Shown: one piece after another, positions 56,113 through 57,323 of the stretch
Layout of the letters: every line of letters starts with the position of its first letter
How positions within the stretch are numbered: the first letter of the stretch is position 1
Assembly (NCBI RefSeq): GCF_054482525.1
Contig: NZ_CM137006.1
Length of the DNA: 64,000 nucleotides
Direction: 5' to 3' (one strand)
Program-made: the position numbers and the translations under genes
The notes under the pieces: generated by a model
Databases searched by the model: none
What the model was told of the DNA's origin: nothing
The model's input: the letters and a program-made list of their open reading frames with translations, nothing else

Positions 56113-56119
56113 TGGGGGA

Positions 56120-56235
56120 GACTATATAAGGTCTCGGACTGTCCCCTCGCCCCTTTGGGGAGAGGGTTAGGGTGAGGGGAAAGTGCGCGCTGAGTCCCTC
56201 ACCCCGGCCCTCTCCCCAAAGGGGCGAGGGAGAAA
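56120..56235. repeat. GC-rich palindromic intergenic element (REP/BIME-like)
   Basis: cccctcgcccctttggggagagggttagggtgagggg and its near reverse complement ccctcaccccggccctctccccaaaggggcgaggg. Confidence 0.5.
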
Positions 56236-56273
56236 AACGTGTACGACTTTAACTTTTTCGCAGTATTGCCGTC

Positions 56274-57032
56274 CTACAAAATCGTCTCTTCCGTCAAAAT
56301 CCTGCGCGCGCCTAAAAAATGATCCTGCCAGAAAGGTTCAGCTAACCGACTTACCCGAATGGTTTCCCCCGTGCGCGGCGACTCGATAAACTGACCGTCT
56401 CCCAGATACACGCCCATATGATCGGCAATCTCGCGGCTGTGGATATGGAAAAACAGCAAATCTCCCCGGCGCAGGTCGTTGTTCGCCACAATCGTTGCCC
56501 GATGGTAGTGATACATCTCATTGGCCGTGCGCGGGAGCTTCGCCTCGAGGATCTTGTTGTAGGCATAAAAAACCAACCCGCTACAGTCGAAGCCTTGATC
56601 GGGCCGCGTGCCGCCCCAGACGTAAGGCTTGCCAAGCTGCTGCTCCAGGCGGTAAATCGCCACTTCGGTGATGTTGTGTAGATGGTCGCTGCTTAAGAAA
56701 TGGTTGTTCTCCGCCAGCGCCTGCCAGCGTCTGTCACTTGCCTTGAGCGGCGCAGGAAACCATTCTGGATGCTGTTTTATCTGTTCGCGGTTGTGCTGGC
56801 GCAGCGCCTTTCTGCTTTCGGCATTGCCTTCCACAATATAGCTGGCCTGTTTTTTCAGATGGGTTTGGTACTGTTTTAATAAACGCGCACGGTTTTGCAT
56901 CCGCTGGCGGGCGGCGTAGCTGAAAGAGATATGTGATGTGGTGGCGCTGGCGAGTAAAGGGAGCAAAACGCATAACGAAAACACGCCTGGATGCAGAAAT
57001 CTGCCGAGCAAGAACGAAGACATGAAGGACAT
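56274..57032 (-). CDS. yafL: NlpC/P60-family peptidase YafL
   Basis: 252 aa; C-terminal NlpC/P60 domain with catalytic Cys (DCSGLVFYAY). Confidence 0.8.
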   Translation of the reverse strand: MSFMSSFLLGRFLHPGVFSLCVLLPLLASATTSHISFSYAARQRMQNRARLLKQYQTHLKKQASYIVEGNAESRKALRQHNREQIKQHPEWFPAPLKASDRRWQALAENNHFLSSDHLHNITEVAIYRLEQQLGKPYVWGGTRPDQGFDCSGLVFYAYNKILEAKLPRTANEMYHYHRATIVANNDLRRGDLLFFHIHSREIADHMGVYLGDGQFIESPRTGETIRVSRLAEPFWQDHFLGARRILTEETIL

Positions 57033-57323
57033 AAACCGGCTGAATGAAGGTGAGAATTTTAAAAGACCAGAGGAGTAAACGGGATTATTAATTGCTTATT
57101 TGCATATTACTATTGAGGTTTCATAATCTTAGGAAATAAATGATACATGCGCTTTTCGGACTATTGAAAACTGCCCCTGTGCTAAATTTGTAAACCCTGC
57201 GCCGACAGGCTTGCGTAAAACTCTTTTGGTGATAATGTGAGCCTTCCCAATCCAGACTATTCCGATTTGGGATCCATTTTGCCGTCCTGGCGTGTGTAAC
57301 CGTTTTATCAAGGAATAAGCAGT

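Follow-up and report, generated by a model that had tools for sequence, protein, structure and literature searches.

The locus comprises lfhA', yafL and dpaA (yafK), separated by two short spacers (Table 1). It lies in a 64-kb stretch of E. coli DNA, the whole of which was analysed and is referred to here as the window, and it runs in the reverse orientation relative to K-12. In the RefSeq feature table the K-12 order is dpaA(yafK)-yafQ-dinJ-yafL-rayT-lfhA'-lafU'-dinB. An earlier note on this DNA had given the same order (yafK, yafQ, dinJ, yafL, rayT, lfhA) and had proposed that the strain lacks both dinJ-yafQ and the REP-associated transposase RayT; the coordinates it gave for the two spacers are those of Table 1. 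A nucleotide search with a 2.3-kb query spanning the locus returned a 100% identical match in E. coli PCN033, a phylogroup D strain (PMC4578781), and the locus is likewise 100% identical in SCU-102. From the start of the window, SCU-102 matches at 100% identity over 25 kb, and the contiguous match to PCN033 covers the first 19 kb only; the source is therefore SCU-102 or a strain nearly identical to it.

Downstream of yafL, the lfhA'-lafU'-dinB region aligns contiguously to K-12 at 97% identity (blastn). The lafU' and lfhA' ORFs overlap (window 53643-56112) and are contiguous with the K-12 pseudogenes; the Flag-2 deletion scar is therefore the same as that of K-12. In Escherichia sp. E1V33, Escherichia sp. 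MOD1-EC7003 and Pseudocitrobacter, lfhA appears to be intact, homology to the window beginning at 54400. The yafL gene itself (56274-56959) is 93.5% identical to K-12 and its neighbours, lfhA'-dinB and dpaA-yafJ, are 97-98.5% identical (blastn): yafL is a locally divergent allele flanked by two polymorphic spacers.

Table 1. Features of the lfhA'-yafL-dpaA locus (window coordinates)
Feature	Position	Strand	Description
lfhA'	54340..56112	+	Truncated remnant of a Flag-2 FlhA-family gene (ORF, K-12 annotation)
lfhA'-yafL spacer	56113..56273		161 bp, stop-to-stop between convergent genes; the K-12 equivalent is 896 bp
BoxC/TMECO type A unit, CCCTCGCCCCTTTGGGGAGAGGGTTAGGGTGAGGGG	56144..56179	+	36/36 identical to K-12 TMECO nos. 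7, 11 and 15 (Table 1 of PMC4666352)
BoxC/TMECO type B unit, inverted; reverse complement CCCTCGCCCCTTTGGGGAGAGGGCCGGGGTGAGGG	56196..56230	-	35 nt, the first 35 of the 36-nt K-12 TMECO no. 3
CCGTCCTAC	56269..56277		Nine bases in common with the last REP of the K-12 rayT allele: CTAC/GTAG foot and five stem bases
yafL	56274..57032	-	NlpC/P60, C40 peptidase, 252 aa; 90% identical to K-12 YafL
Allele-specific segment	56960..57183		224 bp: 5' codons of yafL and the distal part of the yafL-dpaA spacer
yafL-dpaA spacer	57033..57323		291 bp, divergent intergenic; unoccupied, with blocks conserved across Escherichia species
dpaA (yafK)	57324..58064	+	246 aa; 100% identical to the K-12 protein

Absence of DinJ, YafQ and RayT

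Alignment with K-12 across yafK-yafL-lfhA resolves two replaced segments, one at rayT and the other at dinJ-yafQ (blastn). Window positions 56108-56268 stand in for 896 bp of K-12 sequence containing rayT and its flanking REP/BIMEs, and the allele-specific segment takes the place of 830 bp containing yafQ, dinJ, the promoter and the first 64 bp of yafL. The window has no adjacent dinJ antitoxin and yafQ toxin ORFs of the kind that make up a type II module and, between yafL and lfhA, no REPtron, that is, no Y1/HUH transposase flanked by REP/BIMEs.

We searched the whole 64-kb window by tblastn with the K-12 DinJ, YafQ and RayT proteins (word size 2, E up to 10) and found no homologues or remnants of any of the three: all matches were chance ones, the best having an E of 0.029. 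To look beyond the window, we used a chimeric megablast query composed of the window yafL-dpaA segment, K-12 rayT and K-12 dinJ-yafQ. In both the PCN033 and the SCU-102 chromosome it returned a single place, with no rayT or dinJ-yafQ elsewhere, at a sensitivity too low to pick up a strongly diverged rayT or yafQ paralogue at another place in the genome or on a plasmid. On these two negative searches, in the window and in the chromosomes of its closest matches, the proposal that the strain is without dinJ-yafQ and RayT stands.

The yafL-dpaA spacer and dinJ-yafQ

Among 5426 complete E. coli genomes, 3340 carry the dinJ-yafQ allele and 2084 the dinJ-yafQ-free allele of the window. Since the two sum to 5424, they are complementary alleles. 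For an outgroup comparison we scanned with YafL as the query, taking one genome per species, and recovered 20 loci, of which 19 belong to enterobacterial genomes or contigs. Sixteen related loci span the yafL-dpaA spacer and all but one are without dinJ-yafQ, the exception being Escherichia sp. MOD1-EC7003; the module is not present in E. albertii, Escherichia sp. E1V33, the E. coli representative of the scan or any Citrobacter or Phytobacter locus sampled.

The window spacer is colinear from end to end with those of E. albertii, E1V33 and E. coli SCPM-O-B-8794, the sole length difference being an 11-bp indel. Such uninterrupted colinearity with insert-free outgroups is what marks an unoccupied ancestral site, and in this respect the description of the yafL-dpaA spacer as an 'empty site' in the earlier note was apt. 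YafL of the window departs from that of K-12 over its first ~27 residues, where it has the form also seen in E. albertii; by this comparison the window YafL carries the predicted signal peptide of ancestral type. Together, the outgroup colinearity and the YafL N-terminus shared with E. albertii mark K-12 dinJ-yafQ as a gain: as read from sequence, the yafL-dpaA spacer is a true ancestral empty site and the K-12 module a lineage-specific acquisition.

The module would then have been gained later in some lineages (A, B1, E-related and F), within an 830-bp block that took the place of the yafL promoter and signal-peptide codons as well. Judging from the breakpoints alone, the most likely mechanism would be homologous recombination in which the crossovers fell within yafL and upstream of dpaA. 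This agrees with the published distribution. The yafQ-dinJ pair has been placed in the EB1A lineage and is confined to F among the members of the FGB2 lineage (PMC6896753), and YafQ has been described as prevalent in phylogroups A, B1 and F (PMC10790755). In the combined pattern, A/B1/E-related strains and F have dinJ-yafQ and D, B2 and G are without it, and its absence from the phylogroup D sequence analysed here fits. Nothing material differs from these reports; what we add are the exact breakpoints, with an 830-bp block standing in for 224 bp that include the yafL signal-peptide codons.

Repeats and alleles of the lfhA-yafL spacer

The earlier note had described the second spacer as an empty site holding a REP-like palindrome, and here both parts of the description need to be revised. 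The palindrome is an inverted pair of BoxC/TMECO units, which belong to a separate repeat family, its left arm matching a K-12 TMECO in 36 of 36 positions. The BoxC motif was defined as 34-37 nt of the form CCCTC(G/T)CCC-loop-GGGAGAGGG-(TTA or CCG/TCG)-GGGTGAGGG, and both arms conform to this BoxC/TMECO/PIT motif. Likewise, the arrangement is the one expected of BoxC pairs, type A inverted against type B in an intergenic position: a type A unit (TTA linker) on the plus strand is followed after 16 nt by a type B unit (CCG linker) on the minus strand, and a stop codon lies on either side of the pair. The arms of the palindrome are 35 nt long and 91% complementary, and the two units form a hairpin with a computed RNA fold of -86.8 kcal/mol (z = -10 versus shuffles).

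As the RefSeq K-12 feature table contains no repeat_region features, we named the repeats from the table of Holder et al. 2015 (PMC4666352), where the TMECO motif is equated with the element earlier named BoxC and also PIT. That study, which also covers 63 pan-E. coli loci, lists five pairs of A with inverted B in K-12, and the three that we fetched, at ygfF-gcvP, fepB-entC and alx-sstT, have the layout seen in the window. The window element thus resembles the published family in its exact type A match, its typical A plus inverted B pairing and its intergenic position; it differs in location, BoxC at lfhA-yafL not being among the 23 K-12 units of PMC4666352 and K-12 having no BoxC at this locus. 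The same paper makes the biophysical claim that BoxC/TMECO forms an intrastrand DNA triplex; our computation concerns hairpin folding alone.

For REPs we required a ~35-nt imperfect palindrome with the E. coli Y/Z consensus (GCCGGATGCGGCG...CCGGCCTAC or GCCTGATGCGACGC...) and a GTAG/CTAC foot. None of the three consensus patterns (Y or Z2 type) occurs in the spacer or anywhere else in the 64-kb window, and the same patterns give 5-7 matches in the homologous 16-kb K-12 locus. The difference may reflect erosion of REPs in a lineage without RayT, or just a stretch poor in REPs. REP/BIMEs are the substrates of RayT and are present in hundreds of copies per genome; the spacer used as a query matches 5-15 megablast places per genome, with a median of 7, short of a REP-like copy number. 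BoxC here is like REP/BIMEs in that both are intergenic palindromic repeats standing just after stop codons, but the sequence family is different and the window palindrome has no GTAG foot. At two sites in the window a BoxC element stands where K-12 carries REPs. The second is the yafJ-gmhA spacer (58856-58922), 2.6 kb from the first, where one BoxC type-B unit is present from 58879 (CCCTCACCCCGGCCCTCTCCC...); a REP/BIME occupies this position in K-12, E. albertii, E1V33 and other Escherichia, and the BoxC form of this second REP-to-BoxC swap is found in 329 of the 5426 E. coli genomes.

The BoxC hairpin is very stable and probably serves the two convergent transcripts as a structural or 3'-end element. 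We rejected an intrinsic terminator as a firm claim: no U-tract follows the hairpin on either strand, and the consensus terminator scan reported no site. A known RNA family was likewise set aside, an Rfam scan of 55900-57500 giving only generic hairpin (miRNA-precursor) matches far below gathering scores.

Twenty complete E. coli genomes have the full-length junction (301 bp), and most of a further 107 have one that is 64 bp shorter. The 64-bp deletion (TTAGGGTGAGGGG...GGGGCGAGGG) lies between the direct repeats GGGGAGAGGG and GGGGCGAGGG and leaves a small hairpin (E. coli ETEC1738, locus 1544-1700); hairpin-preserving deletions are known for palindromic TMECO pairs (PMC4666352).

In all states of the site the variable segment is bounded by the last codon of lfhA and the yafL stop codon. 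Across the 5426 genomes it is filled by the rayT REPtron in 3575, by hicAB in 1480 and by the BoxC spacer of the window type in 127, leaving by subtraction 244 unclassified genomes, some of which have BIMEs only. The lfhA-yafL site would be best described as polymorphic in the manner of a cassette, with four or more fillings that exclude one another: the rayT REPtron, BIMEs alone, hicAB and the inverted BoxC pair. In Kluyvera (locus 6735-7161) and Phytobacter (6645-6984) a different insert of 340-430 bp occupies the spacer; it may encode a small hydrophobic protein, as one more filling of the stop-to-stop site. The 3.4-kb contig SFGJ01000062.1, from a 'Clostridiales bacterium' MAG, encodes YafL, HicB, HicA and the C-terminus of LfhA, all 98-100% identical to the E. 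coli proteins; almost certainly it is E. coli sequence that was mis-binned into that MAG.

The locus and the phenomenon are those of Ton-Hoang et al. 2012, who in their main text found 74 of 110 genomes to carry tnpAREP between yafL and fhiA and described two routes of loss, precise excision with the BIMEs left behind and replacement by hicAB (PMC3333891). The proportion with rayT, about two thirds, is the same in both samples. E. coli genomes without RAYT are also known from other work (PMC8049555). Set against the main text of PMC3333891, the window represents a third kind of rayT-less allele, with the whole spacer swapped for an inverted BoxC pair; the word 'BoxC' does not occur in the searchable main text of that paper.

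Origin of the two alleles

We consider it highly likely that the window comes from a phylogroup D E. coli with two common natural alleles around yafL, namely the ancestral dinJ-yafQ-free spacer and a BoxC replacement of the rayT REPtron. The lfhA-yafL spacer does not show the colinearity with insert-free outgroups that characterizes its counterpart across yafL: it shares nine bases with the rayT allele, and rayT is at the site in all other Escherichia species sampled, so that it is a BoxC-filled replacement rather than an empty site. The loci with rayT between lfhA and yafL are those of E. albertii, E1V33, MOD1-EC7003, the E. coli representative and Pseudocitrobacter faecalis; in Citrobacter the same interval contains nothing but a 45-bp terminator hairpin. 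The REPtron would thus be ancestral in Escherichia, and the lineage of the window would have lost it through replacement of the whole spacer, with at most a 9-base REP foot left beside the yafL stop. Early acquisition of tnpAREP followed by loss is also the conclusion reached in the main text of PMC3333891.

The nine bases, CCGTCCTAC, overlap the yafL stop codon TAG (56274-56276), and homology to K-12 resumes at their first base, 56269. They may be a REP remnant, which hints that the window allele derives from a REP-bearing ancestor. They could also be a coincidence, as part of the match is constrained by the stop codon. We considered RayT cleavage at CC^TAC, the site given in the main text of PMC3333891, as the origin of the right breakpoint and rejected it, the shared sequence running 6 bases past the cleavage point.

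The same BoxC spacer is present outside Escherichia. In Pseudocitrobacter vendiensis it differs by 2 mismatches in 161 bp, the adjacent 300-bp coding flanks being 93.3% and 93.7% identical, and an uncultured Pseudocitrobacter has it too; P. faecalis, as noted above, has rayT instead. Over lfhA (Flag-2) and yafL (locus ~6000-8400), P. faecalis and P. vendiensis have 88-95% DNA identity to E. coli, as close as E. albertii; homology ends upstream of yafL, with no dpaA homologue within the fetched Pseudocitrobacter locus. Because the Pseudocitrobacter block is about as close to E. coli as are other Escherichia, it appears to be horizontally shared, and the comparison suggests that the Flag-2/yafL block was transferred between genera together with its polymorphism. 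Recent import into the window lineage from Pseudocitrobacter was rejected: the lfhA and yafL flanks (~88-95%) are no closer to Pseudocitrobacter than to other Escherichia. Taken with the lack of rayT in Citrobacter, the P. vendiensis spacer implies that the BoxC allele is either old or horizontally shared. It could predate some REPtron alleles.

This bears on an opposite ordering of events, in which the BoxC spacer is the older state of the lfhA-yafL site, the REPtron entered later, possibly repeatedly or by transfer between lineages, and the window keeps the pre-REPtron site. Citrobacter, Kluyvera and Phytobacter, all without rayT at the site, and the two Pseudocitrobacter with the BoxC spacer are in keeping with it; so are the REPtron allele of E1V33, which keeps the lfhA end (GAGTTGATGGG) of the BoxC allele, and the occurrence of the BoxC allele in the early-branching phylogroups D and F. 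We nevertheless hold this ordering to be unlikely, given that rayT sits exactly at the site in four of four other Escherichia lineages and in 66% of E. coli, that the BoxC allele is found in only 2.3% of genomes and retains the REP-foot-like CCGTCCTAC, and that the Pseudocitrobacter flanks, at ~93% to E. coli as close as other Escherichia, suggest transfer of the Flag-2/yafL block itself.

A second alternative is that both sites are deletions from a K-12-like ancestor that once carried dinJ-yafQ as well as rayT. For rayT this is essentially the view favoured here, with rayT in every other Escherichia species sampled and with early acquisition and later loss as the inference published in the main text of PMC3333891; for dinJ-yafQ it can point to MOD1-EC7003, the one non-coli Escherichia that has the module. 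Its dinJ-yafQ half is, however, refuted by the outgroup colinearity: the yafL-dpaA spacer runs uninterrupted in E. albertii, E1V33 and a divergent E. coli, with its promoter-region blocks intact. Moreover, tblastn finds no dinJ or yafQ ORF remnant, the linked YafL signal-peptide allele is of the outgroup and not the K-12 type, none of the Citrobacter loci sampled has the module, and PMC6896753 treats dinJ-yafQ as a gain. As an account of both sites, it is very improbable. Finally, although REP/BIME arrays and long palindromes are difficult to assemble, the chance that the short spacers stem from faulty assembly (such as collapsed REP arrays or mis-joins) is negligible, refuted as it is by recurrence across independent finished assemblies: the identical 301-bp junction in 20 independent complete genomes, its short variant in many more, and the empty yafL-dpaA allele in 2084.

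Returning to the reading that we prefer, an ancestral spacer on one side of yafL and a BoxC replacement on the other, both absences are common, already published strain differences; the finding is correct and ordinary. dinJ-yafQ and rayT are textbook cases of how the E. coli pan-genome varies, and their distributions are in the literature; the only mildly new element is the BoxC replacement allele, which is missing from the searchable text of PMC3333891. This third rayT-less allele may be of interest for the turnover of REP and BoxC repeats. A bolder proposal, which we rate as quite doubtful, is that the stop-to-stop spacers around yafL are exchange sites at which the rayT REPtron, BIME array, hicAB and BoxC pair swap and are shared across genera. 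It would fit the P. vendiensis spacer, with its 2 mismatches in 161 bp between flanks of 93.3% and 93.7%, the BoxC swap at yafJ-gmhA and the REP-free window. If true, BoxC could be mobile or selectively maintained, displacing REPs in lineages without RayT, and the locus would offer a handle on how BoxC spreads.

For the strain itself, the two alleles mean that there is no YafQ mRNA interferase and no RayT acting on REPs, and such strains offer natural backgrounds that are null for both dinJ-yafQ and rayT. They also illustrate that 'missing relative to K-12' can be the ancestral state, as for dinJ-yafQ, or a loss, as for rayT.
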